From Dehalococcoidia bacterium (lineage in GTDB: Bacteria > Chloroflexota > Dehalococcoidia > Plut-88900): DNA of 64,000 nt. This document shows, piece after piece, positions 8,360-22,096 of this stretch; the stretch's first letter is position 1; every line of letters starts with the position of its first letter. The stretch is taken from NCBI GenBank assembly GCA_965207225.1, contig CBDBLV010000004.1:192001-256000 (forward strand). The letters run 5' to 3'. Below the pieces are notes generated by a model. That model was not told where the DNA came from. It saw only the letters and a program-made list of their open reading frames with translations, and made no database searches. The translations under genes were made by a program, and so were the position numbers.

Positions 8360-10108
8360 ATGCTAGCCGCCTTCCAAAGGCTTCTGCCGCGGGACTGGAA
8401 ACTCAACGGGACCACGGACAGGCGCCTGCTCTTGTTCAGGATTCGCCAGCAGGGCATCTATCCGGCCCTTGCTATACCGGCAATCCTGGTCATGCTCCTG
8501 TTCTTCGTCATCCCACTGGTCAGGATGGTGGGCGTGAGTTTTGGGGATGGCGAGTTCTCCACGGCGTACTACGAAAGGGCGCTGACTAACCCTATCTATC
8601 AACGGATGTTCCGTACTACTGCGGAACTGGCCGTCACTACGACTATTGCGTGCATCATATTCGGGTATCCGATTGCCTACTACCTAGCGACTCGGGCGGG
8701 GCGGTGGCGGGGTATTGTCCTGCTGATAGTCATAGTGCCGTTTATTACGAATTCGATAGCGAGCACGTACACCTGGCGGGTGATACTCGGGCGACGGGGT
8801 CCGGTCAACGAGTTCGTGCAACTCATAGGGCTCGTGGACGAACCGCTAGAGCTGCTGTGGACGCGGATGGCAGTGGAAATCGGGATGATGCAGCTCTTCC
8901 TTCCATTCATGGTGCTGCCCCTTTACGCCGTCATGCGAAACATTCCCAGGAGCTTGACAGCCGTGGCCGAAAGCATGGGTGCGACCCCCCTGAAGAGCTT
9001 CTGGCGAGTCTACTTGCCCTTGAGTATTCCGGGGATATGGGCGGGATCTCTGCTGGTCTTCATCCTGAGTGCGGGGAGTTCCATTGCGCCCACGGTGCTT
9101 GGCGGCATCAAGGACCAGGGAATCGCGTCCTATCTGTCGGGGACAGGGGGGTTCAGTGCAGCACTAGCCATAATCTTGCTGACGGCCATTCTGATCCTGT
9201 TCCTGATCTTCGCTCGACTGATCGGGTTCGGGTCGATCTACGGCGCGGGGGAGGCCCTGATTCGCTCCTCCTCGATCGAAACCTCTTATCGGGCCCCGCG
9301 CCGGGTTCCGTTGAATCTGCTGGTGGGTCTTCTATGCGCCTTTCTCGTTCTGCCCAGCCTGATAGTAATCCCATTAGCCTTCAACAAGTCTGCGTTTGTG
9401 ATTTTCCCTCCCAAGGCCTATAGCATCGACTGGATCAAGGCTTTCTTTATCAGTGATCCGATCACCCCCGTCAACTGGATTACGTCGACGTCCACGAGCC
9501 TGCAACTGGCTTTCATTACGGTGTTAATTGCCGTGCCATTCGGCGGGATGGTGGCCTATGGACTGGCCCGGGGGTCGTTCCCGGGGCGAGGGCTCCTGGG
9601 GTCCTTCGTCATCCTTCCGCTAATAGTGCCGGCTACGCTAACTGCGCTGGCACTCTTCTATTTCTATTCGTTTAACATGCGCCCGCTGGTGGGAACGGTA
9701 ATCGGAATAGCTCTGCCCCACGTGGTCCTGGCGATACCCTACGTGGTGATTATCCTGACGGCGACGCTCAGGGGAATCGACCAGGTGCACGAACAGGCGG
9801 CAATGAGCCTGGGGGCCAACAGGTTCACGGCGTTACGCAGGGTAATCCTGCCTCAAATAATGCCCGGAATCACGGTGGCGACATTCTTTGCCTTTCTTGT
9901 CTCCTTCTACGAGGTGCCCATAGCGGTCTTCCTCAAAGACCCGTTCCTAAGGACTCTGCCGATGAACCTTTGGAACGGCGTCACGGTGGAGTTTGCGCCA
10001 ATGATGGCCGCAGTGTCATTCATCCTGCTGGTATTTGCCGGCCTTATGCTCATGGGGATCCTGTTTTTCAGGAGTCGGCTGTCGAGGCAGCCGAGCCAAG
10101 AGGTCTGA
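8360..10108 (+). CDS. Fused double ABC permease (PotB+PotC-like)
   Basis: Two BPD_transp_1-type halves, each with an EAA loop (VAESMGA...; EQAAMSLGA...), and many hydrophobic helices. Start codon uncertain. Confidence 0.88.
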   Translation: MLAAFQRLLPRDWKLNGTTDRRLLLFRIRQQGIYPALAIPAILVMLLFFVIPLVRMVGVSFGDGEFSTAYYERALTNPIYQRMFRTTAELAVTTTIACIIFGYPIAYYLATRAGRWRGIVLLIVIVPFITNSIASTYTWRVILGRRGPVNEFVQLIGLVDEPLELLWTRMAVEIGMMQLFLPFMVLPLYAVMRNIPRSLTAVAESMGATPLKSFWRVYLPLSIPGIWAGSLLVFILSAGSSIAPTVLGGIKDQGIASYLSGTGGFSAALAIILLTAILILFLIFARLIGFGSIYGAGEALIRSSSIETSYRAPRRVPLNLLVGLLCAFLVLPSLIVIPLAFNKSAFVIFPPKAYSIDWIKAFFISDPITPVNWITSTSTSLQLAFITVLIAVPFGGMVAYGLARGSFPGRGLLGSFVILPLIVPATLTALALFYFYSFNMRPLVGTVIGIALPHVVLAIPYVVIILTATLRGIDQVHEQAAMSLGANRFTALRRVILPQIMPGITVATFFAFLVSFYEVPIAVFLKDPFLRTLPMNLWNGVTVEFAPMMAAVSFILLVFAGLMLMGILFFRSRLSRQPSQEV

Positions 10109-10136: not shown

Positions 10137-10553
10137 ATGGAGTACGACGACGCACGCACTTTTCTCTCAACAAACTTTGATGCAGTGGTGAACACGTTCA
10201 GGAGGTCGGGGGCGATCCAGACGAGCGTGGTCAAGGCAGGCGCCTACCAGGGCGGGGCGGTGTTCGTGGCGATTGGGAACTCGGCGAAGCTGAAGAACCT
10301 GCGTCGGGACCCGAGGTGTACCGTGACAGTGGTGAGCCCGCACTGGGACCGCTGGTGCGCCGTCGAGGGCACTGTTGTCATCCGGGACTGGGAGAACACC
10401 GACCACGAAGCTCTAAGGGTGGAGCTACGAGAGGCCTTCGTTGCATGTGGCGGCGCTCACGATGACTGGGAAGAGTATGACCGGGTGATGAGGGAAGACC
10501 GTCGGGCGATAGTGGTGGTCAGTGGGGACCACGTATACGGGCAGGGGATCTAG
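10137..10553 (+). CDS. PPOX-class (split beta-barrel) putative F420-dependent oxidoreductase
   Basis: T.RRSG..Q.S.V, K.KNLRRDPRCTV, 'H.DWEEY...M..DRR' pattern of the TIGR03618-like family; GGGAGG RBS. Confidence 0.85.
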   Translation: MEYDDARTFLSTNFDAVVNTFRRSGAIQTSVVKAGAYQGGAVFVAIGNSAKLKNLRRDPRCTVTVVSPHWDRWCAVEGTVVIRDWENTDHEALRVELREAFVACGGAHDDWEEYDRVMREDRRAIVVVSGDHVYGQGI

Positions 10554-11449
10554 CCCAGCATCTTCAGCGCGCCTGCCTCTACGGATATCTCGGCGGGGGT
10601 CTGGGAGACCTTTTCCCCATCTGCCCAGATGGGCATTGGGGCCTCGGTCTCCAGTTTGAGGCTTTTCACCCTGTGAATCGAGACCGCGGGATGCCTGGTA
10701 TGACCGCCCTTGAAGACCCGGGGCAGGATCATCACCACGTCGCATCTTGAGACTGACTTTACGAGGCACACGTCCAGCATGCCATCATTGGGGAGGGCAT
10801 CGGGGGCGATGTGCATGTTGCCGCCGTACTGTCGGGTGTTGGCGGTCGCGGTCAGGAACGTCCGGCCGGAGTAGCTCAAGCCGTCACCTTCCAGGCTAAC
10901 CTGAACGTCCCTGTAGCGGAACAGTTGCAGGAAGATGGCGTAGAGATACGAAGGGGTGCCCTTGAGAAAGCGAGGCACATGGCCGTCGGCAACGTACTGG
11001 CTCACGGTGCTGTCGAAGCCCAGAGTTGCGACCGTAGCGAAGTACCTGCCACCTACAACACCCAAGTCAACAAGCCTGGTTTTGCCGGACAAGATGAGGT
11101 CTCGGATTTCCACAGCAGTCTTTGGGAGGCCAAGGGCCGTTGCGAAGTCGTTGCACCTGCCAGAAGGCGCAACCCCGACGGTCACGTTATGTCCTCCGTG
11201 GCCGGACATCACCCCGTTGATCACCTCGTGGAGCGTACCGTCGCCGCCACAAGCCAGGACGCCTGCGATGCCATTCTCCACTGCCGCAGCCGCCATTGAT
11301 TCGGCATCACCGGGAGCTGTGGTGTAAAGGACATCGCTGGGAATATCGGCGCCAGTGAGGAGATTTCCGATGCGCTCTGCGAGTCGCAGGCTGGCACCCT
11401 TGCCGGAGGTCGGGTTGGCAATGATGGTCCACGAATCGCTGCTAACCAT
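10550..11449 (-). CDS. Diacylglycerol/lipid kinase family protein (YegS/DgkB-like)
   Basis: NPTSG, GGDGTLHEVING, PSGRCNDFA, GG...AP.A...DG.LD and DGE motifs. Start moved to ATG 11449, 2 nt after the upstream stop. Confidence 0.9.
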   Translation of the reverse strand: MVSSDSWTIIANPTSGKGASLRLAERIGNLLTGADIPSDVLYTTAPGDAESMAAAAVENGIAGVLACGGDGTLHEVINGVMSGHGGHNVTVGVAPSGRCNDFATALGLPKTAVEIRDLILSGKTRLVDLGVVGGRYFATVATLGFDSTVSQYVADGHVPRFLKGTPSYLYAIFLQLFRYRDVQVSLEGDGLSYSGRTFLTATANTRQYGGNMHIAPDALPNDGMLDVCLVKSVSRCDVVMILPRVFKGGHTRHPAVSIHRVKSLKLETEAPMPIWADGEKVSQTPAEISVEAGALKMLG

Positions 11450-11451
11450 TG

Positions 11452-13038
11452 CTAGGTCACGTCGCAGAGGAAGATGGGCGGGTAGTGAAACATTGAGACC
11501 TCGGGGGAGGGGCCGACGCTGTCCCTGGCCATCTCGAGGGCGGTGGGGACGTCGGGGGCAGTCTCGTAGCCCAGCCGCTCGGCGACAGACTTGTCCCTGG
11601 CACCTGCCACGATGACCCGACCCAGGTAGTCCTGCCCGTAGCAAGCCCAGTACCACATATAGAAGGGATGCACGCCGTGGTAGGCGTAGGACTCCCGATA
11701 GAGTCGTCGATACCGCTCATCGTCTGCATACACCGCTTCGAAGCGCTTTTCGATTTCGGCGGCGTCCTGGGTCTGGGGGAGGATGTTGTTGTAGAAGTCG
11801 ATATAGGAGGGGTGGTGGGTGGCGTTGAAACGCTCGTCCAAGGGGTGGGTGAAGATGAGCACTCCTCCCCGTTTAACCAGCGGTTTGCCCCGGTACATGT
11901 TGAAGCTGTAGCCGAGGGCCAGGGTGTGGATAAGCAAGGGGTTCAGGAAGGAGTTGACGTTGTAGGGACAGAGGTAGGGCAGGCCCATGACCATTACGTC
12001 GGCCTGGCCCTCAACCGGGACGGTCTGCTGCTTGAACAGGGTGGACAGGATCTGATCATGGACCATGTCCGTGTCGCCGGCGGCGACGTCCAGAAGGCCG
12101 TAGGGCGAGCGGAGGTTCTGGAAGATCTGCCATCTAAGGTAGAAGGGCGCGATATTCAGGGCCGGGCGGTTGACACCGAAGGTGATTTTGTCGATGAGAT
12201 TCCAGTCCGACTCCTGCTTCTGCAGGTGGGACAGTATCGAGGGAAAGGTGTTGGAGTTAAGCGCGGTCTCGATCTTGAAGACGTTCAGGTTCTTTGCCAC
12301 GACCTTGCCCATGCCGTTGACCGAATCGTGGAGGGCCGAACGGGTCGGGTCCATGTAGGACTCACAGCGCATCAGGGTGTGTACGTTATGGTGGTGACGG
12401 ATGGTCTTGTAGCTGACGAGGCCCGTGTTAATGGACTTGTGGCCCCCGTCCATGGATGAGAGGTTGATGTTGACGTAGATGAGCAAGTCTGAGTCGGCGA
12501 TCCGTTTTGAGGTCTCCACCTCTTCGCCGTGCTCGGTGGCGCCCAGGACAACGAGATTGTCACGGTCTTCAGCATCAAAGTTGTAGAGCCTGTCGGGATG
12601 GAAGCGGTTGAAGACCTTCCTACCAAGGGCTCTCTTCAATTCGCCGGGCGTCATGCGCCTATGGAGGCCAAGGGCAGCGACGAGGTGGATATCATCGACG
12701 CCCTTTTCGGCGAGGACTTTGAGCACTGCTTCGACGATGCGCTGGCGCATGTCGGGTCGGGTCATGGGGGGGAGGGGAAGGGAGATATCGTCGAAGGCGA
12801 TGGTCACCTTCATGCCGGGCCTGAGATGTTCGGACAGGGGGTCCTGGCCCAAGGGGTTTTCGAGGGCGTTGGCTATCGCAGCGTCGGGGTCTTTGATAGC
12901 GGGGAGGGGGGGTGGGGGGTAGATGACACGGGCTCCGACGGGCAGCTCCTCGTACCGGAAGGACTCCCCGTGGTGCATGAGGAATCGCTGCCCGGGCTTT
13001 TCCACCCGCTTAACCAGTTTGCTCTTGTCTATTTCCAA
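11452..13038 (-). CDS. Lactate racemase (LarA/DUF2088) domain protein
   Basis: AL..P.G...L, IAFDDISLP, ALGLHRRM and DGGHKS motifs of the LarA N-terminal domain. Confidence 0.8.
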   Translation of the reverse strand: MEIDKSKLVKRVEKPGQRFLMHHGESFRYEELPVGARVIYPPPPLPAIKDPDAAIANALENPLGQDPLSEHLRPGMKVTIAFDDISLPLPPMTRPDMRQRIVEAVLKVLAEKGVDDIHLVAALGLHRRMTPGELKRALGRKVFNRFHPDRLYNFDAEDRDNLVVLGATEHGEEVETSKRIADSDLLIYVNINLSSMDGGHKSINTGLVSYKTIRHHHNVHTLMRCESYMDPTRSALHDSVNGMGKVVAKNLNVFKIETALNSNTFPSILSHLQKQESDWNLIDKITFGVNRPALNIAPFYLRWQIFQNLRSPYGLLDVAAGDTDMVHDQILSTLFKQQTVPVEGQADVMVMGLPYLCPYNVNSFLNPLLIHTLALGYSFNMYRGKPLVKRGGVLIFTHPLDERFNATHHPSYIDFYNNILPQTQDAAEIEKRFEAVYADDERYRRLYRESYAYHGVHPFYMWYWACYGQDYLGRVIVAGARDKSVAERLGYETAPDVPTALEMARDSVGPSPEVSMFHYPPIFLCDVT

Positions 13039-13087
13039 ATCAACACCTTTATGGACAGGGCCTTGACGTTAGTGTAGCAAGCCTGAT

Positions 13088-14314
13088 TCAGCCGGGAAAG
13101 GAGAAGGCCACCTTGGCCCCACCCAGCCTCCCGGCCCGTCCTGCGATTACCAAGGCATCCTTGTAGCGACGGATGGGAAACCGGTGAGTGACGAGGGCCG
13201 CCAGCCGGTCACGCAGTTCCTGGTTTTTCATCAGACGAATTGCCAAGTCGAAAGTCTTGACGTGCTCGTTTGCAGTGTGTTCCAGGCCGTAGGCATAGGC
13301 GCCGGTGAGGCGCACCTGCTGGTGCCACAGGGGGGTGAGGTCGGTGCGGGCGTCAGAGGGCATGCCTAGAGCTACTACGGCGCCATTCTCCTCCGTCCAC
13401 CTGACGGCGTCATCCAGGGCCGCGGAGCTCCCGACACACTCGTAGACGACGGGAAATCCACCAACCACCGCGGGTTTCTCCCGAATGACCGGCAAAAGCT
13501 TTGCTCCAACTTCGCCAGCAAGCTGCTCGTAGCCGTTCACGCCGGGAGGGTAGACGGTGTCGGCGCCCAGGGCCCGGGCGGTGGTGGCCTGGGAGGGGTA
13601 CTTGGCGACGGCGATGATGCGGGTGTCGGGTCTCAGGGCCCTCAGGGCGGCGATGGTCAAGAGGCCAACCACACCACACCCGAGGACCAGCGCAGGACCC
13701 GGCTCAGCGGGTTCTGCCCGGAGCACGCCGTGAATGGCGCAGGAGAGGGGTTCAATAAGCACTGAGGCCTGGTCGGAGAAATCAGTCGGGACGGGGTGGA
13801 GCTGGGAGACATGAGCAACAAATCTCTCTCCCCAGCCACCCGGCAGGCTCCTACAATACCCGGTCTGCAAACCCGCACCCACCGCTCCTTCCGTAGCCCG
13901 TATACAGTTTGCATAGCGACCGGCTGCACAGGCGGGACAGGCTTCGGAAAAGCCCCTGACCGTGCACCCGAGAGCCGGTTCTATTGCTACACGGTCACCG
14001 ACCTTGAAACCCTGGACTTGTGCTCCGGTCTCGATTATCTCGCCCACAACCTCGTGGCCGGGGACGAAGGGAAAGGAGGTGAAGCCAGAGAGGTAAAGAC
14101 TGCCCTTGCTCTTAATCACTGCAAGGTCCGAGCCACAGATGCCGCTAAGGATGGTGCGCAATTTGACCCAATCCGGGCGGGGGAGCTGGGGTTCGGGAAC
14201 ATCTTTCAGGCGAAGGAGGCTGGTCGGGCCGAGGGCGAATCGGGGGAAGGGCCCGGACAGAACCCGGGTCAGAAGATACCGAGGTACGCTCTTGTAAATG
14301 ACCAGGGCTTTCAC
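13088..14314 (-). CDS. Zinc-dependent medium-chain alcohol dehydrogenase
   Basis: GICGSD, GHEVVG, four-Cys structural Zn site, GCGVVG nucleotide-binding motif. Confidence 0.9.
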   Translation of the reverse strand: MKALVIYKSVPRYLLTRVLSGPFPRFALGPTSLLRLKDVPEPQLPRPDWVKLRTILSGICGSDLAVIKSKGSLYLSGFTSFPFVPGHEVVGEIIETGAQVQGFKVGDRVAIEPALGCTVRGFSEACPACAAGRYANCIRATEGAVGAGLQTGYCRSLPGGWGERFVAHVSQLHPVPTDFSDQASVLIEPLSCAIHGVLRAEPAEPGPALVLGCGVVGLLTIAALRALRPDTRIIAVAKYPSQATTARALGADTVYPPGVNGYEQLAGEVGAKLLPVIREKPAVVGGFPVVYECVGSSAALDDAVRWTEENGAVVALGMPSDARTDLTPLWHQQVRLTGAYAYGLEHTANEHVKTFDLAIRLMKNQELRDRLAALVTHRFPIRRYKDALVIAGRAGRLGGAKVAFSFPG

Positions 14315-14371
14315 GGTTATCTGGGAGTTGCGTCGGTTTGAATCATCTCTTGAGCCTTAAAGCCGGACCAA

Positions 14372-15067
14372 CTAAGACGGTTTGCCCTTGCTCGTCCAGT
14401 GTCGCACGGGCCAGCCTCGGGAGCGGGCGAGTTTCTCAAGACGACGCTCGGGGTTCACCGCAACCGGATGTCCGACCAGCTCAAGGAGTGGCAGGTCGGA
14501 CATATCGTCTGCATAGGCGTAGGACTCGGAGAGGTCTACGCCTGATTGGGTTGCCCAGGTTTCGGCGGCCTCGGCCTTGGCAGTGCCGCTCAGGGGTCCT
14601 GACGACAATTCTCCAGTGAATCGCCCCGCCGACACCCCGCAGCGGGAGGCCATCACTTCGTCGGCCTGGAGAAGTTCGCCCAAAGGGACGACCATTTCGA
14701 AAAGTCCGCCAGTCAGAAGCACAACTTTGTGACCTTGTTCTCGGTGCCTGTTGACCTGGTCTCGTGCCTCTTGAAAAAGGTGTCGGGACCAATAAGCGCG
14801 GCCGGGGCCCTGGGTCCAGCGTTCCATGGCTTCCACGGAGACTCCATTGTAATTCTTGAAGAACCTCTCGATAAAACGCACGCGGTCGAGCCAGTCCAGG
14901 TAGGCGTAGAGAGGCGCTTTGGCCAGCACGCCCCCCACCGAGATGGCCTTGCCCAATAGGCTCTTGCCGTCCAAGGTGAAGTCCAGATACGCGTCGAGAA
15001 GGTTGGAAGAAGCACTGGTGCGGTCTACGTCGAAGAAGGCTGCCGGGTGGGCGTTAGTCGGGCCCAT
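14372..15067 (-). CDS. HAD-IB (SerB-like) phosphatase
   Basis: FFDVDRT motif I, LLTGG motif II, K...A, YADDMSDLPLLE.VG.P.AVNP motif IV. Start at ATG 15067 overlaps the upstream stop. Confidence 0.85.
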   Translation of the reverse strand: MGPTNAHPAAFFDVDRTSASSNLLDAYLDFTLDGKSLLGKAISVGGVLAKAPLYAYLDWLDRVRFIERFFKNYNGVSVEAMERWTQGPGRAYWSRHLFQEARDQVNRHREQGHKVVLLTGGLFEMVVPLGELLQADEVMASRCGVSAGRFTGELSSGPLSGTAKAEAAETWATQSGVDLSESYAYADDMSDLPLLELVGHPVAVNPERRLEKLARSRGWPVRHWTSKGKPS

Positions 15068-17303
15068 GCAGAGCCTCAACTGCAGCCTGGACTTCGCCGG
15101 TGACCTCCCGGGTAAGCTCTCCGAGGGCCCTGGGGTCGTTCCCATTGGCTTTGCCCGAGGAGTGAAGGGGCTGACCGAACCGGATGATAACGGGACGGCG
15201 CTTTACGAACCAGGAGCCCTTGGGCATGGCCTTGTCGGAGCCGACGATGAGGGTGGGAATGACGGGGGCGTCGGACATCAGGGCGAGGAAGCCGATCCCG
15301 TTCTTGAACGGCTGCATTAGGCCGGGCTGGCCCCTGCTTCCCTCGGGATAGAAGACCAAAGAGTGGCCTTTCTCAAGCACGGCAAGGGCCAGTCCGAGCT
15401 CTTCCCGAGCGGTTGACTGCCTATTGAATGGGATGGCGTTGAAGAGGATGCGCACGGTGCGGGCCATGAAGGGGTTTTCGAAGAAGTAGTCCTTGGCGGC
15501 GACGGGGTGGAGGTTGCGGGCCTTGGGGCCGAGAGCATGGAAGATGACGGGGGTGTCCATGTGGCTGTTATGGTTGGCAGCGATGATGAAGGGGCCGGAG
15601 TCGGGGACGTTATTCAATCCCTCGCAACGGAACCCGGTCCACCACCTGATAGCCCAGGTCATCGGCATGAACAGGGCCTTGCCGAGGGCCCGGGTCCACG
15701 GAGAGACTCTGAGCCACTTTTCGGCTTCCGCCTTGAGAGCAACGTCGGAGGCGCGGAGGGCCCTGGTGTCGGCGTCTGGCTCCATGCCCAGGAGGTATTT
15801 CTTGACGCCAGGTATGTGGACACCCTGGAGGTAGGTGGTCCAGTCAAGGCTGGCGATATCAAAGTCGAAGTGCTCCCGGTCGGACTCGTGGAGGGACTCC
15901 ATGACACTGCGGGTGTTGTTGGTGAGGAACTTGCAGTCCGCCTCGGCGTAGGGGCCGTAGAGCCGTCCGTACTGGTATAGACGCTCCAGGGAGAACATCT
16001 TTGACTTCAGCCTCGTACGGAAACGTCGGGCGTGAGGAATGAGGGAGAACGGTGTGGTGACTGCAATGGCTGCCCGGAGGGGCAGCATGTACTTCAGCCG
16101 GATCCGGCGAAGAAACTTGGGGGTGGTGGGGAAGGTGGGTTTGATCAGCTTCCTAGGCTTCCCATTTTCGTCTCCGGATACCGGGAAGGGGTTCATCTGG
16201 AAGTAGGCGTCCACCTGGTCCGCGAAACCCCCGAGCGTTATGGGGTTCTCCATCCCGGAAGCTATCTGGAAAACCTCCCGGGTATCGAACTCCGACGCCT
16301 TCGCAATGGTGGCGAGAATTGCGTTTGCCACCATGTCCACGGGGATGATATCGAGGATGCCGTTGCGATTGCCGGGAAAATCGATCATGCGGCCCCGGCC
16401 ATAGGCGACGATGAGGGGGTCGAGCATCCGGTAGCCGTTCAGCCAGCCTGGCAGGGGAGATTTCCAGGCCCCTTCGATGATTGCGGGCCTGATGATGGCG
16501 CCTCTCAGGCCCTCCGTGCTACGGACGAACATCTGCTCACCCATAGCCTTTGAAAAGGTGTAGACGTCCTGCCACCCGCGTCGGTGGGCCCACTCCATAC
16601 CAACTCTGCTCAACTCGCGGTCAAGGCGCTCCGACTCAGTGCGGTTGACTTCGGGACTCGAGCCCCTTATAGACCGTGCTTTCTCAAGGACGGCCGAAAC
16701 CTCCGTTTCCAAGTCATACGGGGACTGGGGAAGGCCGTTAATGTGACCGACCGTGCGGGTGGGGTCGGGGAGTTCCTCGGGGACAGGGCCTTTTCTAGTA
16801 GCGTTCACGTAGCAAGTCGAGACCTGGGCGAAGAATGCATCGTTGCAGCCCTTTGCGAAGTCGGCGATTCGTCGAGGGCCAAGGGTATTGAGTCCTACAG
16901 CCTTATCCAGGGGCGCATCGAAGGAGACCACGGCGGCGCAGTTGATGATGATGTCTACTTCGCGCTGGAGACGATCGTAAACCTCGGGCTCGAGGCCCAA
17001 TTTTTCGGAGGCCACGTCTCCGGAAACTGCCTGCACTTTGGCGTGGAAAAGACTATCAAAGGGGCCGCCGAGCCGGTCCTTCAAGGGGTCGAAGATCTGG
17101 GAATCGTAGACTTCCTGCTTAAGGCGCTCCTCAATGGAAACGGGGGAAGCGCCGGGTCGGGTCTTGGGCCGGACGAGGACGTAGACCTTTTCCACTTCGG
17201 CCAGATGGCTAAGGAATCTCTCCAAAAGCACCTTTCCCAGCAAGCCGGTGCCGCCAGTGAGAAGGACGGTCTTTCCCCTATAGAAGTCTTGAAGTTTCTG
17301 CAA
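15054..17303 (-). CDS. Fatty acyl-CoA reductase fused to a PlsC-type acyltransferase
   Basis: N-terminal TGGTGLLGK, VSTCYV and YTFSKAMGE (NAD_binding_4/male-sterility FAR) plus a Sterile-like domain; C-terminal NHNSHMD (HX4D) and FYPEGSR. Confidence 0.9.
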   Translation of the reverse strand: MQKLQDFYRGKTVLLTGGTGLLGKVLLERFLSHLAEVEKVYVLVRPKTRPGASPVSIEERLKQEVYDSQIFDPLKDRLGGPFDSLFHAKVQAVSGDVASEKLGLEPEVYDRLQREVDIIINCAAVVSFDAPLDKAVGLNTLGPRRIADFAKGCNDAFFAQVSTCYVNATRKGPVPEELPDPTRTVGHINGLPQSPYDLETEVSAVLEKARSIRGSSPEVNRTESERLDRELSRVGMEWAHRRGWQDVYTFSKAMGEQMFVRSTEGLRGAIIRPAIIEGAWKSPLPGWLNGYRMLDPLIVAYGRGRMIDFPGNRNGILDIIPVDMVANAILATIAKASEFDTREVFQIASGMENPITLGGFADQVDAYFQMNPFPVSGDENGKPRKLIKPTFPTTPKFLRRIRLKYMLPLRAAIAVTTPFSLIPHARRFRTRLKSKMFSLERLYQYGRLYGPYAEADCKFLTNNTRSVMESLHESDREHFDFDIASLDWTTYLQGVHIPGVKKYLLGMEPDADTRALRASDVALKAEAEKWLRVSPWTRALGKALFMPMTWAIRWWTGFRCEGLNNVPDSGPFIIAANHNSHMDTPVIFHALGPKARNLHPVAAKDYFFENPFMARTVRILFNAIPFNRQSTAREELGLALAVLEKGHSLVFYPEGSRGQPGLMQPFKNGIGFLALMSDAPVIPTLIVGSDKAMPKGSWFVKRRPVIIRFGQPLHSSGKANGNDPRALGELTREVTGEVQAAVEALHGPD

Positions 17304-17453
17304 ATGAATAGGTGAGGCTCGGCCAATGTGAAGGCCGATATCGGCCGGAGGCCTTTTATATCCGCCCAGGCCTCGGCGCTGCGCTCAGCGCGATGAATTA
17401 TAAATACAGGTGCGAAACTCGTCTATTGCGGACAGCAGTCGGGGAGAAGTCAT

Positions 17454-18020
17454 TCACTGGGCTGCGAGGATACTTGCGACGTCGGCAAGGCACTTGACCC
17501 GAGTCACGTTGGAGAGGTAATCGTAGTTGCGGTTCCTGGGCCAATCTCGTAGGAATACGGTTTTCAGGCCTTTACGGGACAGGATGTCGGCGACCCGGCC
17601 GTCATCATCGACAAACTCCTGTATACCGAGTCGGGAGCACGTTTGCCATTTGAAGTCGGGGGAGGGGAGCCCGAGGGAGTTGGCGTGGACCTCTTGAAAA
17701 AGGTCTGCAAACCCATGCCTCTTTAGCCAGGCGGTTATCAGATCTTTGCCCGTTGCGTTCCGGCTGGTCACGAGGACGGGGGTCCGGTATTTGCTAATGG
17801 CCTCGATGCCGGCGAGGGCGCCGGGCAAAGGTCGGCGCCCAAGATATTTCAGCTTCAGAAAGAGCTTCAGGGCCTGCAACATCAACCCTTGAGGCGATCT
17901 GCGATTCATCTGACGAGGATGGTACTCTCTGTAGGGCCCCGAGGCTATGGGCAGATTGAGGCCCAGGGGTGGTCGGCAGATCACGCCGTCCATGTCTATG
18001 CCGATCAGCGGCTTTTCCAT
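17454..18020 (-). CDS. HAD-superfamily hydrolase (5'-nucleotidase-like)
   Basis: IGIDMDGV, VTSR, K...C..LGI..FVDDD motifs. ATG 18020 preferred; GTG 18047 is an alternative. Confidence 0.75.
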   Translation of the reverse strand: MEKPLIGIDMDGVICRPPLGLNLPIASGPYREYHPRQMNRRSPQGLMLQALKLFLKLKYLGRRPLPGALAGIEAISKYRTPVLVTSRNATGKDLITAWLKRHGFADLFQEVHANSLGLPSPDFKWQTCSRLGIQEFVDDDGRVADILSRKGLKTVFLRDWPRNRNYDYLSNVTRVKCLADVASILAAQ

Positions 18021-18123
18021 CGGAATCCTTCGCGGAATTGTAGCCACATTTTAGCCCACAAAGTTCCCCGTGCTTAGCCATGTGTTACTATCCGCGCAGC
18101 AAACGGCACAGGAGGGCGAGATC

Positions 18124-18999
18124 GTGAAACACCTTGGAGCCGAGCAGATTTGCCACCGATTCTCCGCAGAGGACGAACCTGCCGTACGCGTGGGGTCAGG
18201 AGAGAGATTCACCGTTACGACTACGGACAGGTTCAAGGACGTTTCACGCACCGATCCCGATTTCGCGAGATCAAAGATAGTGCGGTCAATGAACGGGCCG
18301 ATCTATGTGGAAGGGGTGAAGGCCGGAGACACACTCAAGGTGGAATTCCTGTCCATGTCTCCCGCCGAGCCCCAAGCCTACGTCCTTGCGCTGCCGGGCG
18401 CCGGGGCACTGGGCGATAGGATTTCCAGTTTTCGGATGATAGAAGTCCAGATCTCCGAAACGGAGGCCGTGTTCCCGAGCGGAGCATCCATTCCCTTCAG
18501 GCCGATGCTGGGCCAGATTGGCGTCGCGCCTGAAAAAGGTGAAGCGCAGCTCGGGGATACTGGGCCGTTCGGGGGGCAGTTGAGCATTACGGATGTCACG
18601 GCGGGATCGGCCCTCTACCTTCCCGTATTCCACGACGGAGCATACCTGGCGATGGGAGACTCGCATCTCGCCATGGGAGAGGGAGAAGCTACGAGCTCGG
18701 CGGTGGAGGGTTCGATGAAGATCACCATGCAGGCATCGGTTTCACAGGACCTACAGGTGAAGGAGCCCCTAATCATCACAGCGGACCACGTGATCACGTT
18801 TGGTCGGGGGCGGACGTTGAACGAGGCCGGTGAAGTTGCAACGCTAGCGATGTCTAACTTGCTGACGGAGCGGCTGGGGGTCTCTGCAGTGGAGTCTGCA
18901 ATGTTGATTGGATGTGCGGCAGACCTACGGGCGGCGTTGGCCCTCTATACACCTTACAGCATGAAGATGCTGATGCCTCGGGGAAGCTTGTCGCTGTAA
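18124..18999 (+). CDS. Acetamidase/formamidase family protein
   Basis: GPIYVEG...GDTL.V, PMLG.IGVAP, LYLPV...GA.L..GD.H..MG.GE motifs; GGAGG RBS before GTG 18124. Confidence 0.88.
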   Translation: MKHLGAEQICHRFSAEDEPAVRVGSGERFTVTTTDRFKDVSRTDPDFARSKIVRSMNGPIYVEGVKAGDTLKVEFLSMSPAEPQAYVLALPGAGALGDRISSFRMIEVQISETEAVFPSGASIPFRPMLGQIGVAPEKGEAQLGDTGPFGGQLSITDVTAGSALYLPVFHDGAYLAMGDSHLAMGEGEATSSAVEGSMKITMQASVSQDLQVKEPLIITADHVITFGRGRTLNEAGEVATLAMSNLLTERLGVSAVESAMLIGCAADLRAALALYTPYSMKMLMPRGSLSL

Positions 19000-19018
19000 A
19001 GTACAGCCTTGAAAGGGG

Positions 19019-19051
19019 AAGGCCCGGCGCACCTATACGCCGGGCCTTTTT
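19019..19051 (+). terminator. Rho-independent terminator
   Basis: AAGGCCCGGCG-loop-CGCCGGGCC followed by TTTTT. Confidence 0.8.
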
Positions 19052-19089
19052 CGTATTCAGGGCCAAGGGACGCCCCGCCCATCCACTAC

Positions 19090-19812
19090 CTAGTCGTCGG
19101 AAGCGAACCCAAGGAGGTTGAGGATGATGAGAAAGATGTTGAGGAAGCTCAGGTAAAGGCCAATGCTTCCGATGACTGCCACCTGGGTTGCGGCCTGGTA
19201 GTCGCCTTGCTCGGCCGCCTGCATGGCCAGTACCTTGACCTGTCGGGTCTCATAAACCGTCAGGACAAGGAACAGGGGCAGAAGCAGCAAGTTGATGAAG
19301 AGGAAGAGCATGCTGGACTGGAGGAGCAGCATGTTTATCAGGCTGATGCCAATCAGTCCGAGGAGACCGAATATGAGGATAGGTCCAAGCCGCGAAAGAT
19401 CCTTCTTCGTGGTCATTCCTATAAGACTCATCCCGACAAAGAGCCCAGCCGTAAGGATGAAGGCAAGCCCTATCCTTTCGTTGGTGTAAGCCGAGAGGAT
19501 CCAGGAAAGGAAGAACCCTTCCATGGCGGTGAAGAGCAGATAGACGCCGGTTGCGGCGCCGATCTGGCCCCTGGTGGCGAGGGCGCTGGCCCCCATGAGG
19601 GTGGCGAATATGACACCGAATCCCACAAGGTATCCCAGCCAACCAAGCCCCAACACCACATCCCCCAAGCCAATCCTGTCCCCGACCCAGATTGCGGCGC
19701 CCGTGGTGACTATTCCAAGGGCCAGAAGCCCGTACAGCCGGGACATGGCGCCCGTATAGATTGCGTTGGCTCTGACTGCGCCGGCGCCGTAGCTAAATTG
19801 ATCGCTCAGCAT
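19090..19812 (-). CDS. Bax inhibitor-1/YccA family membrane protein
   Basis: About 7 hydrophobic helices, 'G.TTKKDLS..G', C-terminal 'LYL.F.NIF..IL'. Confidence 0.88.
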   Translation of the reverse strand: MLSDQFSYGAGAVRANAIYTGAMSRLYGLLALGIVTTGAAIWVGDRIGLGDVVLGLGWLGYLVGFGVIFATLMGASALATRGQIGAATGVYLLFTAMEGFFLSWILSAYTNERIGLAFILTAGLFVGMSLIGMTTKKDLSRLGPILIFGLLGLIGISLINMLLLQSSMLFLFINLLLLPLFLVLTVYETRQVKVLAMQAAEQGDYQAATQVAVIGSIGLYLSFLNIFLIILNLLGFASDD

Positions 19813-19906
19813 TGCTTTTCGCGGTCCTCCAAATCATCCATTTGCTGTATACCGATTATAGCATCGGCGGCCGGTTTCGCAGGCTAAACAAGGACGAGGG
19901 AGGGGT

Positions 19907-20679: not shown

Positions 20680-20912
20680 GGCAAGCATACAGGATAAGGA
20701 CAATTATGGCAACGGTGCGCTGAATGGCAAAGGGGTAAATGGCAATGTCCTTTAGTATCTTTAGGTTTGCCTTATCTGGATACTGCTTTTGACCATGCCT
20801 AGAATGCGCTCATATTGCCTTAAATTCGTCTGTGATTCGGACAAGCACCGATTCTTTCTGGCGAAACGGTCAAGGCAATGTGCCAAAGGGTACCGTTTCA
20901 AAAGCAAGGCAA
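20680..20912. repeat. Cluster of eight GGCAA/TTGCC boxes between the DUF5343 gene and ftsZ
   Basis: GGCAA at 20680, 20708, 20726, 20741, 20874 and 20908; TTGCC at 20767 and 20815; mostly in ATGGCAA or AAGGCAA context. Confidence 0.55.
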
Positions 20913-20965
20913 GCCTCCATCGGGAGGTCGGGCCACAAAATCAGTTAAGAGGGAGGATAGCGAAA

Positions 20966-22096
20966 ATGGTCGTAGAGCAACTATTGAGCAACCGGCCGGT
21001 ATCACGGCTTTCAGTAGACAGGGCGCCGGCCCGAATCAAAGTAGTCGGCGTAGGTGGAGGCGGTTGCAACTGTGTCCGCCGGATGCTTGCGCATAACGTC
21101 CCGGGCGTCGAGTTTGTCGTCGTCAACACGGACATCAAGTCCCTGGAGTCGGTAACCCAGGGCGCCACCATCCTCCAGATAGGTGAAAACATCACTCACG
21201 GCTGGGGCGCAGGTGGAGAATACGACGTCGGTGAAAAGGCCGCCGAGGAGTCTTCCACTCTTATAAAGAAGGCTCTGAAGAACGCCGAGCTGGTATTCCT
21301 GACCGCCGGTATGGGCGGAGGGACCGGCACGGGCGCCGCGCCCTACGTGGCCCAGTTGGCCAGGGACATGGGCGCACTTGTGGTCGGTGTGGTGACCACC
21401 CCCTTCAGTTTCGAGGGATCGCGCAGGCTCGGCCAGGCGGTCGCCGGAGTTGCGAGGCTACGGAAGCACGTGGACAACCTGATCGTCATCCACAATGACA
21501 GGCTGCTCCAGTTCGTAGACCACGACGCGGGGATGACGGAAGCCTTCGCAACCGCTGACGAAGTTGTCAGCCAGGGAATCGTCAGTGTCTCGGAGCTCGT
21601 CAACGTGCCGGGCGAGATCAACGTAGACTTTGCCGATGTTCAGAGCATTATGGCCAATCCCGGCGGGGCTCTCATGGCGATAGGAATTGGTCGGGGCAAC
21701 ATGGGGGCCCTGGAAGCGGCCCGGCAAGCCATCACCAACCCCCTGCTTAACCTCTCCATCCGAGGCGCCAAGGGCGTGCTCTTCTCCGTGAAGGGCGGCG
21801 ACGATCTGACTTTGGGCGGCGTGAACGCCGCAGGTGAGCTGATAAACAAGGCCGTCCACAGGGATGCGAGCATCTTTTTCGGGATGTCGATCGACCCGTC
21901 ACTGGGCGACATGGTGAAACTGACTCTTATCGCAACGGGACTCCGGCAGGACAGGGGCCTGGGCAACGTAGCAGGCGCCTTCAAGGGCCTGCTCCCGGGG
22001 GTCGAGATGAAAGTGAAGGCGCCCGGGATCTTCGGACGCGGCAACAAGCGAAAGAGGCGGTCTTCCCAGATGGAGTGGGATGACGACTTCTTTTAG
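20966..22096 (+). CDS. ftsZ: Cell division GTPase FtsZ (orphan paralog)
   Basis: IKVVGVGGGG, NTD, GMGGGTGTG signature, PFSFEG, INVDFADV T7 loop, IATG. GGGAGG RBS before ATG 20966. Confidence 0.95.
   Translation: MVVEQLLSNRPVSRLSVDRAPARIKVVGVGGGGCNCVRRMLAHNVPGVEFVVVNTDIKSLESVTQGATILQIGENITHGWGAGGEYDVGEKAAEESSTLIKKALKNAELVFLTAGMGGGTGTGAAPYVAQLARDMGALVVGVVTTPFSFEGSRRLGQAVAGVARLRKHVDNLIVIHNDRLLQFVDHDAGMTEAFATADEVVSQGIVSVSELVNVPGEINVDFADVQSIMANPGGALMAIGIGRGNMGALEAARQAITNPLLNLSIRGAKGVLFSVKGGDDLTLGGVNAAGELINKAVHRDASIFFGMSIDPSLGDMVKLTLIATGLRQDRGLGNVAGAFKGLLPGVEMKVKAPGIFGRGNKRKRRSSQMEWDDDFF

Follow-up and report, generated by a model that had tools for sequence, protein, structure and literature searches.

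A putative AGPS-independent ether lipid operon of the elb type, containing a LarA homologue, in a Dehalococcoidia genome

A six-gene operon was analysed in a 64,000-nucleotide (nt) stretch of DNA from a Dehalococcoidia bacterium (GenBank assembly GCA_965207225.1, contig CBDBLV010000004.1, positions 192,001 to 256,000; this whole stretch is called the window, and positions are given within it). The operon combines a fatty acyl reductase (FAR) fused to a PlsC-type acyltransferase with a homologue of the nickel enzyme LarA (LarAH). It is probably an elb-type accessory operon for lipids that works without alkylglycerone-phosphate synthase (AGPS, the classical ether-bond enzyme) and directs the synthesis of, most likely, 1-O-alkyl-glycerol (ether) lipids, a product and a mechanism that we infer from the genes. 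Open reading frames (ORFs) were taken from the listing for the window, and families were assigned by Pfam and NCBIfam profile searches of the window proteins.

The six ORFs lie on the minus strand between 10550 and 18047, numbered here in the order of transcription: g1 (17454..18020; small HAD-superfamily-like protein), g2 (15054..17303; FAR-PlsC fusion), g3 (14372..15067; HAD-IB phosphatase), g4 (13088..14314; Zn-dependent alcohol dehydrogenase [Zn-ADH]), g5 (11452..13038; LarAH) and g6 (10550..11449; lipid kinase). The original prediction, made from the DNA letters of this Chloroflexota lineage, had described six co-directional genes, several overlapping or abutting, and the layout agrees with it. 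At the likely starts, g2 and g3 overlap by 14 nt, the stop of g5 is 2 nt from the ATG of g6 and the remaining gaps are 49, 57 and 150 nt. Because the genes on both sides (10137-10553 and 18070-18999) are on the plus strand, the unit can include at most these six genes. The families predicted for g2 to g6 were all recovered by Pfam and NCBIfam matches.

Recurrence of the gene module

An alignment of 20 FAR-PlsC homologues was used to collect FAR loci, and the best 80 of 235 confirmed loci were compared. Stop-to-stop ORFs at these loci were scored with the window proteins and domains, and examples were checked by Pfam. The locus nearest to the window FAR-PlsC in public data is also from Dehalococcoidia (99% identity), and no myxobacterial locus is among the best 80. 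LarAH is found at 32 of them. FAR-acyltransferase fusions have LarAH and ADH in their flanks at 15 loci, LarAH with an ADH cut by the contig end at one, AGPS at five and none of the three at another three. FAR-HAD fusions are flanked by LarAH and ADH at 14 loci, by ADH only at two whose contigs end, and by none on one 2-kb contig. Where FAR stands alone, LarAH and ADH are present at two loci, AGPS at two and none at seven. None of these genes occurs in the flanks of 26 ElbD-type loci (FAR-ligase-acyltransferase) or of two ElbD-type loci that are truncated.

In the Chloroflexota FAR-PlsC loci, an HAD-IB gene is adjacent in 18 of 18, LarAH in 16 of 18 and the kinase gene in 14 of 18. The two exceptions (L022 and L034) carry ADH, LarAH and kinase as a second operon elsewhere in the genome. 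In Actinomycetota, including Actinopolymorpha alba DSM 45243, a FAR-HAD fusion is accompanied by ADH, LarAH and a PlsC that is encoded separately. One Eisenbacteria locus encodes FAR, HAD-IB, ADH, LarAH and kinase, and among these genes are two others for large proteins that belong to no family. A module of FAR, HAD-IB, LarAH and acyltransferase, with or without Zn-ADH and kinase, is therefore recurrent in Chloroflexota, Actinomycetota and Eisenbacteria. That the same parts are differently fused in different phyla argues strongly for a joint function. The gene arrangement is more than chance, since the genes recur together in 16 of the 18 Chloroflexota loci and, with other fusions, in Actinomycetota. 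The original prediction had proposed synteny as a check; in relatives the genes remain linked and are not dispersed.

Further genes accompany some of these loci. The two Eisenbacteria proteins (L035:11687-13723 and L035:14435-16507; 679 and 691 amino acids [aa], no Pfam family) are encoded between FAR, HAD-IB and ADH-LarAH-kinase and are possible further members of the pathway. In two SAR202 loci (L021, 13250-14455, and L020, 13006-14478), a DAO-family FAD oxidoreductase gene follows HAD-IB; it is speculated that its product supplies dihydroxyacetone phosphate (DHAP) from glycerol-3-phosphate. An LPG_synthase_TM protein is encoded beside LarAH in one of them (L021:5593-6672).

The distribution of LarAH was also determined in an even sample of 301 Chloroflexota genomes (match threshold: E-value of 1e-100 or better). 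Thirteen genomes have a LarAH match, 12 of them above the family cut-off. The reductase is present in 11 genomes, all 11 of which have LarAH; conversely, FAR is present in 11 of the 13 LarAH genomes. At the 12 Chloroflexota LarAH places other than that of the host, the adjacent genes include a FAR-HAD fusion (10 places), a PlsC-type acyltransferase (12) and a Zn-ADH (9); one of these places is a 5.9-kb contig and one has HAD, LarAH and acyltransferase only. Among 41 relatives (host genome counted), 12 pass the LarAH14/15/16 model, all in the window's own family. LarAH is found in nine of 201 Planctomycetota genomes, each of which has the reductase, and six further genomes have the reductase without LarAH.

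Three ElbD-bearing genomes (from Planctomycetota, Armatimonadota and relatives) encode LarAH apart from ElbD, with the kinase directly after it, an order also seen in the Eisenbacteria locus. These free-standing LarAH-kinase pairs are far from ElbD (L119:9258-12099, L120:8808-11295 and L121:8801-11273), and in Planctomycetota and Armatimonadota their neighbouring genes are unrelated. In a quick tree (SH-aLRT support only), the Dehalococcoidia LarAHs form one group (94) beside the kinase-linked LarAHs of ElbD-bearing genomes, and a clade of FAR-HAD-linked LarAHs (97) lies apart from the Dehalococcoidia group. That LarAH and ElbD strictly exclude each other was considered and is ruled out: three of five ElbD-type genomes have LarAH elsewhere, and the group 15 gene context given by Desguin et al. 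(2020) places LarAH adjacent in myxobacteria, contradicting such exclusion.

LarAH and AGPS

The AGPS-like gene of locus L037 was used as the AGPS query. AGPS-like genes follow or neighbour FAR in seven of the best 80 loci (376-1051 bits against the L037 gene), and none of these 80 loci has both LarAH and AGPS. Outside Chloroflexota, AGPS follows the FAR-PlsC fusion in five of six cases, and the sixth contig ends at the fusion.

The same pattern is found in genomes. No strong AGPS is encoded by the host genome (92% complete), the best match to the L037 gene being 72 bits. Eight further LarAH-positive genomes likewise have no strong AGPS; their matches score no more than 155 bits, cover only a portion of the query at 33-35% identity and are read as probable other FAD-linked oxidases. 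Another eight LarAH-positive genomes, from Planctomycetota, also lack a strong match. Strong AGPS is thus found in 0 of 17 LarAH-positive genomes, and the window-type LarAH in 0 of five AGPS-positive genomes. Both ElbD-type genomes without LarAH have AGPS (484 and 464 bits), as do three further genomes without LarAH. LarAH and AGPS are complementary in the genomes sampled, and this is not a strict rule.

The LarA homologue

G5 encodes a protein of 528 aa that has the conserved domain PF09861 (Lar_N; 137.9 bits) and passes the family model NF052592 (LarAH14/15/16; 805.5 bits, cut-off 740). In the LarA of L. plantarum, which serves as the reference, Asp72, Lys184 and His200 bind the cofactor and His108 is catalytic. 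Each of the g5 residues D84, H126, K201 and H217 (K+16) is kept by at least 97% of the 49 homologues compared, and D84, K201 and H126 align with D73, K195 and H115 of the solved structure 9q2u. At the His174/Asn185 position of this alignment g5 has a gap, and at the Arg75/Lys76 position it has Leu87. This residue pattern matches that of LarAH groups 14 and 15, in which the His174 equivalent is gapped, Arg75 is replaced by I, L or V and Lys298 is replaced by Asn, as listed in Dataset S2 of Desguin et al. (2020; PMC7583248).

In LarA, the second histidine (His174) and the carboxylate-binding Arg75 and Lys298 are needed for 2-hydroxy-acid racemisation. Because the second catalytic histidine and the Arg75/Lys298 equivalents are missing, g5 is, as judged from its sequence, a member of the LarA superfamily by fold and cofactor site and not a racemase of the known kind; it is predicted to be a single-histidine nickel-pincer-nucleotide enzyme. 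Desguin et al. (2020), in the part of their study that treats groups 14 and 15, read these losses as a possible sign of another hydride-mediated reaction.

The closest solved structures are LarA-Sp and LarA-Bw (PDB 9q2u, 9q3k and 9q3j; PMC12611868), with E-values of 7e-34 and 2e-26. Like g5, these proteins have about 500 aa, are matched in both domains and keep the catalytic His and the cofactor-binding Lys, and they have a single catalytic histidine. They differ in that Asn replaces the second His and that their genes lie among those of sugar metabolism, whereas g5 has a deletion at this position of the alignment and is encoded among lipid genes. The authors of that study propose substrates unlike 2-hydroxy acids for LarA-Sp and LarA-Bw (PMC12611868). 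A nickel-pincer enzyme of a different fold is described as performing intermolecular hydride transfer (PMC13524815), and hydride shuttling by this cofactor therefore has a precedent.

The genes for synthesis of the cofactor are present in the host genome: LarB (287 bits, cut-off 175), LarE (334 bits, cut-off 150) and LarC (PF01969, 446 bits). The genome also encodes a second LarA homologue (C5:1664046-1665560, equivalent to L100:8047-9561, minus strand; 505 aa, 272 bits) that is 36% identical to g5. It adjoins Amidohydro_2, DNA-repair and tRNA-synthetase genes and has no lipid context. About 5.5 kb from this paralogue is a gene for a group II intron reverse transcriptase (L100:15096-17018).

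Other enzymes of the operon

G2 encodes a protein of 749 aa with the Pfam domains NAD_binding_4 (215.7 bits), Sterile (48.9 bits) and Acyltransferase (PF01553; 76 bits). Its closest solved chains are a fatty acyl-CoA reductase (7eoz, E-value: 1e-80) and PlsC of T. maritima (5kym, E-value: 5e-14). The motifs GGTG17, YTFSK248, NHNSHMD577 and PEGSR653 are intact and are invariant in the alignment of 20 homologues. G2 matches an ElbD-type protein with 523 bits; together with the passing of the LarAH14/15/16 model by g5, this upholds the homology to elb genes that had been predicted. No AMP-binding (ligase) or PP-binding (carrier) domain was found in g2 by Pfam, as had been noted from the letters.

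G3 (231 aa from the ATG at 15067; ORF 14372-15145) encodes an HAD-IB phosphatase of the ElbB type, similar to COG0560. It scores 122.2 bits with TIGR01490 (cut-off 98.3), matches PF12710 and has a DVDRT motif. Its similarity to the HAD gene behind the ElbD-type gene of locus L033 is 132 bits.

G4 encodes a 408-aa medium-chain dehydrogenase, Zn-dependent and of the polyol-dehydrogenase type, with ADH_N and ADH_zinc_N above cut-off and Glu_dehyd_C. No NCBIfam equivalog reaches its cut-off, the best being IolM (121 of 450 bits). The residues C60, H87 and E88 and the motif GCGVVG212 are present. The closest solved chains are a ketose reductase (1e3j) and a sorbitol dehydrogenase (1pl6), with E-values of about 2e-22. 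Enzymes of these two kinds act on a secondary alcohol beside a CH2OH group.

G6 (299 aa from the ATG at 11449; ORF to 11656) encodes a YegS/DgkB-type lipid kinase with 156.6 bits to TIGR00147 (cut-off 118.65), the domains DAGK_cat and YegS_C and a GGDG motif. All catalytic motifs that were looked for in the operon proteins are intact.

The HAD hydrolase predicted for g1 (188 aa from the ATG at 18020; ORF to 18047, 197 aa) is less firmly placed. The motifs DMDGV, TSR and DDD are typical of HAD proteins, and its neighbours in the ESM Atlas are NT5C/FCP1-like HAD clusters (0.96), but no Pfam or NCBIfam family matches g1 even at an E-value of 10. A g1 homologue is found upstream of FAR-PlsC in seven of the 18 Chloroflexota FAR-PlsC loci, and g1 is a peripheral member that is confined to the close family.

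Elsewhere, the host genome encodes a second PlsC and three PlsY-like proteins, so ordinary ester phospholipid synthesis is separate from the operon. PlsX (PF02504) was not found in this genome, which is 92% complete.

Proposed model and alternatives

The proposed model for the operon is as follows. The FAR domain of g2 would reduce acyl-CoA or an acylated acyl carrier protein to the fatty aldehyde or alcohol, and the acyltransferase domain would acylate a glycerol-phosphate or DHAP backbone. The tethered nickel-pincer nucleotide of LarAH would take a hydride from C2 of this backbone, giving the ketone chemistry that AGPS requires for its acyl-to-alkyl exchange; alternatively, LarAH may pass a hydride to an aldehyde-glycerol hemiacetal. 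Either route would yield the ether, and LarAH would fill the place held elsewhere by AGPS. The Zn-ADH would reduce the ketone of alkyl-dihydroxyacetone(-phosphate) or the fatty aldehyde, a role for which myxobacteria would use the short-chain dehydrogenases/reductases (SDRs) ElbA and ElbE. The kinase and the HAD-IB phosphatase would convert alkyl(acyl)glycerol to its phosphate and back. Versions of the module that have no ADH (L105 and L114) favour the form of the model in which LarAH itself returns the hydride.

The most specific part of this model is put forward tentatively, as a possibility with the balance against it: that the ElbC-type LarA homologue is the ether-bond-forming enzyme of an AGPS-independent pathway, removing the C2 hydride of the glycerol backbone and then either returning it after an acyl-to-alkyl exchange or transferring it to an aldehyde-glycerol hemiacetal, which would yield 1-O-alkyl-dihydroxyacetone(-phosphate). 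If true, nickel enzymes would gain a reaction class that is new to them, and ether lipid synthesis would have two convergent solutions.

Several points weigh against an ether lipid function or against this role of LarAH. The variant is known in all its carriers from genes, and a search of sequencing runs with a 7.5-kb stretch of the operon listed no RNA run that contains it. Purified LarAH14 of Frankia was inactive, although only seven 2-hydroxy-acid activities were tried. In the account given in PMC9131029, mutation ties the ether lipids of M. xanthus only to elbD and possibly elbE, and no elbC mutant is reported there. The likeness of the operon to M. xanthus Elb rests on family models, a supplement and locus tags. 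M. xanthus is described as having both ElbC and AGPS, so the two are not strictly exclusive, and six of the 15 FAR-bearing Planctomycetota, two of them clearly ElbD-type, have neither LarAH nor AGPS at the thresholds used; these six are metagenome-assembled genomes without completeness figures. The 26 complete ElbD-type loci and the two cut by contig ends have no LarAH within their flanks, and the related genomes in all these counts are not independent. The kinase is absent from the SAR202 and actinobacterial versions and the Zn-ADH from L105 and L114; the Zn-ADH step and the kinase/phosphatase step are accordingly not core.

A product other than a glycerol ether was also considered, such as a wax ester, a long-chain diol lipid or an acylated or phosphorylated fatty-alcohol derivative, with LarAH epimerising or isomerising a hydroxylated chain; diol and wax lipids had been named beside ether lipids as possible products in the original prediction. 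A FAR and an acyltransferase would in principle suffice for a wax-type ester, LarA relatives act on 2-hydroxy acids and long-chain diol lipids occur in some Chloroflexota. Such a product is nevertheless unlikely. The acyltransferase is of the PlsC type, nearest to the lysophosphatidic acid acyltransferase 5kym, and not a wax synthase; the phosphatase, lipid kinase and polyol-type dehydrogenase suggest that the backbone is glycerol(-phosphate); homologous FAR-PlsC fusions elsewhere adjoin AGPS; and the carboxylate-binding residues of LarA are missing from g5.

The tight LarAH-kinase pair and the phosphatase would also fit a cycle in which a lipid is dephosphorylated, inverted and phosphorylated again. 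LarAH would then act as a true epimerase on a lyso- or alkyl-glycerol lipid, inverting its C2 as LarA enzymes invert a C2 hydroxyl, and the cycle would produce the opposite glycerol stereochemistry instead of an ether bond. This is improbable, as the known inversion mechanism needs two catalytic histidines and g5, like groups 14 and 15, has one; it also leaves the complementarity with AGPS unexplained.

Kinases and phosphatases are typical of salvage, and the operon could remodel or salvage existing lipids (for example, alkylglycerols or diacylglycerol from the surroundings) without forming new ether bonds. Near-identical DNA is present in runs labelled as sponge metagenome (share 0.20-0.38), and sponges are described in a 2026 preprint as rich in ether lipids. 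The probability of this explanation is small: FAR runs in the reductive, biosynthetic direction, the core that is shared across phyla is FAR, HAD-IB, LarAH and acyltransferase and not the kinase, and the sponge habitat is a lead from run labels. A fortuitous neighbourhood is close to refuted by synteny. In that case LarAH would have a soluble 2-hydroxy acid as substrate, without relation to the lipid genes, as the non-lipid context of the host's LarA paralogue might suggest. Against this, the genes are linked in three or more phyla, in varying orders and fusions, phyletic co-occurrence is near perfect and the context table of Desguin et al. (2020) gives 88% in group 14 for PlsC, HAD and Zn-ADH.

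The AGPS-independent synthesis of ether lipids thus remains the favoured function. How the Elb pathway forms an ether bond without AGPS has been an open question since 2014. To this question the window contributes a Chloroflexota form that is built on a FAR-PlsC fusion and a conserved LarAH-kinase pair, and the complementarity of LarAH and AGPS makes the proposal that LarAH does the job of AGPS directly testable. If the ether lipid reading is true, Dehalococcoidia would join the candidate producers of environmental alkyl-glycerol ethers. Because the adenylation domain is missing, searches keyed on the ligase part of ElbD could miss the Chloroflexota form.

Surroundings of the operon

The gene convergent with g6 (10137-10553, plus strand) encodes an F420-dependent PPOX-class oxidoreductase (TIGR03618 above cut-off), and the gene divergent from g1 (18070-18999, plus strand) is FmdA/AmdA-like. 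Both keep their places in the close relatives L013-L016, L019 and L025. Beyond the FmdA/AmdA-like gene are a 292-aa ORF for which no Pfam or NCBIfam family was found (19009-19887) and FtsZ (20789-22096, plus strand; TIGR00065, 349.9 bits, cut-off 295.2). The FtsZ ORF has 435 aa and its family match begins only at residue 77, which indicates an N-terminal extension or a later start. On the other side, a single ORF of 582 aa (8360-10108, plus strand) has two ABC-permease domains, of which the first half is similar to PotB and the second to PotC, and looks like a fused spermidine/putrescine-type permease.

Scans of the operon for promoters and terminators gave numbers no higher than chance. One promoter-like site was found on the minus strand (17425-17397, between g1 and g2) where shuffled sequences predict 1.9, and five terminator-like sites where they predict 7.0; all five are on the plus strand. 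Besides runs that contain the whole stretch, several DNA runs labelled sponge metagenome contain 20-38% of the sampled words of 10550-18047, a lead to habitat from labels only.

Comparison with known systems

The closest characterized system is the elb operon of M. xanthus. The genes elbABCDE are given as MXAN_1531 to MXAN_1527 (PNAS 2026, PMC13012113), and Desguin et al. (2020; PMC7583248) list MXAN_1529 in their supplement as LarAH group 15; it follows that elbC is MXAN_1529, a LarA homologue. In the gene context of group 15 in that study, COG0560 (HAD) is present in 100%, COG0451 (SDR) occurs two times per locus and COG1022 (acyl-CoA synthetase) is present in 75%. ElbB is described as an HAD protein, ElbA and ElbE as SDRs and ElbC as of "unknown function" (PMC9131029). 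With ElbC a group 15 LarAH and ElbB a SerB-type HAD, the DUF2088 and HAD neighbours of ElbD that the original prediction had named are borne out. ElbD is required for the ether lipids of M. xanthus (PMC9131029; Lorenzen et al. 2014 as reviewed); aldehyde formation in this species is elbD-dependent, and no alcohol was seen.

The window operon shares with elb an HAD-IB protein (ElbB), a LarAH14/15/16 protein (ElbC) and a FAR-type reductase and a PlsC-type acyltransferase within a single polypeptide, which correspond to parts of ElbD. It differs in four respects. ElbD also contains acyl-CoA synthetase and carrier domains, and the ElbD-type proteins of L033 and L041 have all four parts. In the place of the SDR genes elbA and elbE, the window has a polyol-type Zn-ADH; no SDR gene was found by Pfam or NCBIfam in the operon or next to it. 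The window operon also encodes a YegS-type kinase and a small HAD-like protein, so that the Zn-ADH and kinase named in the original prediction as additions are indeed present. Finally, the host is a member of Chloroflexota. The description of the pathway as "stripped-down" holds in so far as the ligase and carrier domains are absent; that they were lost is uncertain, as the FAR-acyltransferase architecture is also that of MXAN_1675 and FARAT.

These FAR-GNPAT fusions beside AGPS (MXAN_1675/MXAN_1676 of M. xanthus and FARAT of Tetrahymena) have the same order of reductase and acyltransferase as g2, and g2 is 36-41% identical to the bacterial fusions that AGPS follows. Unlike these systems, the window has HAD-IB, Zn-ADH, LarAH and kinase genes in the place of AGPS.

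The third comparison is with LarAH group 14 (Frankia and others), to which Table S1 of Desguin et al. (2020) assigns an "unknown function" and a gene context of PlsC (88%), SerB-like HAD (88%), COG1063 Zn-ADH (88%) and thioester reductase (50%). Group 15 is likewise of "unknown function" in the LarA literature, where lipids are not brought up for either group. This group resembles the window in the association of LarAH with PlsC, a SerB-like HAD, Zn-ADH and a thioester-reductase domain, and in the retention of Asp, His, Lys and His with the His174 equivalent missing. The group 14 form in Actinomycetota differs in that FAR is fused to HAD, PlsC is separate and there is no kinase. Searches of the literature (LarA homologues, DUF2088, nickel-pincer and MXAN_1529) found no link between LarA homologues and lipids, and a 2026 sponge preprint, in the portion concerned with Chloroflexota, ties this phylum to ether lipids only via Ger homologues. 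The LarA identity of ElbC and the group 14 context were published in the 2020 supplement, uninterpreted as to lipids. The elb system itself was thus already known, and what the window adds to it is the Chloroflexota FAR-PlsC form and the complementarity with AGPS.

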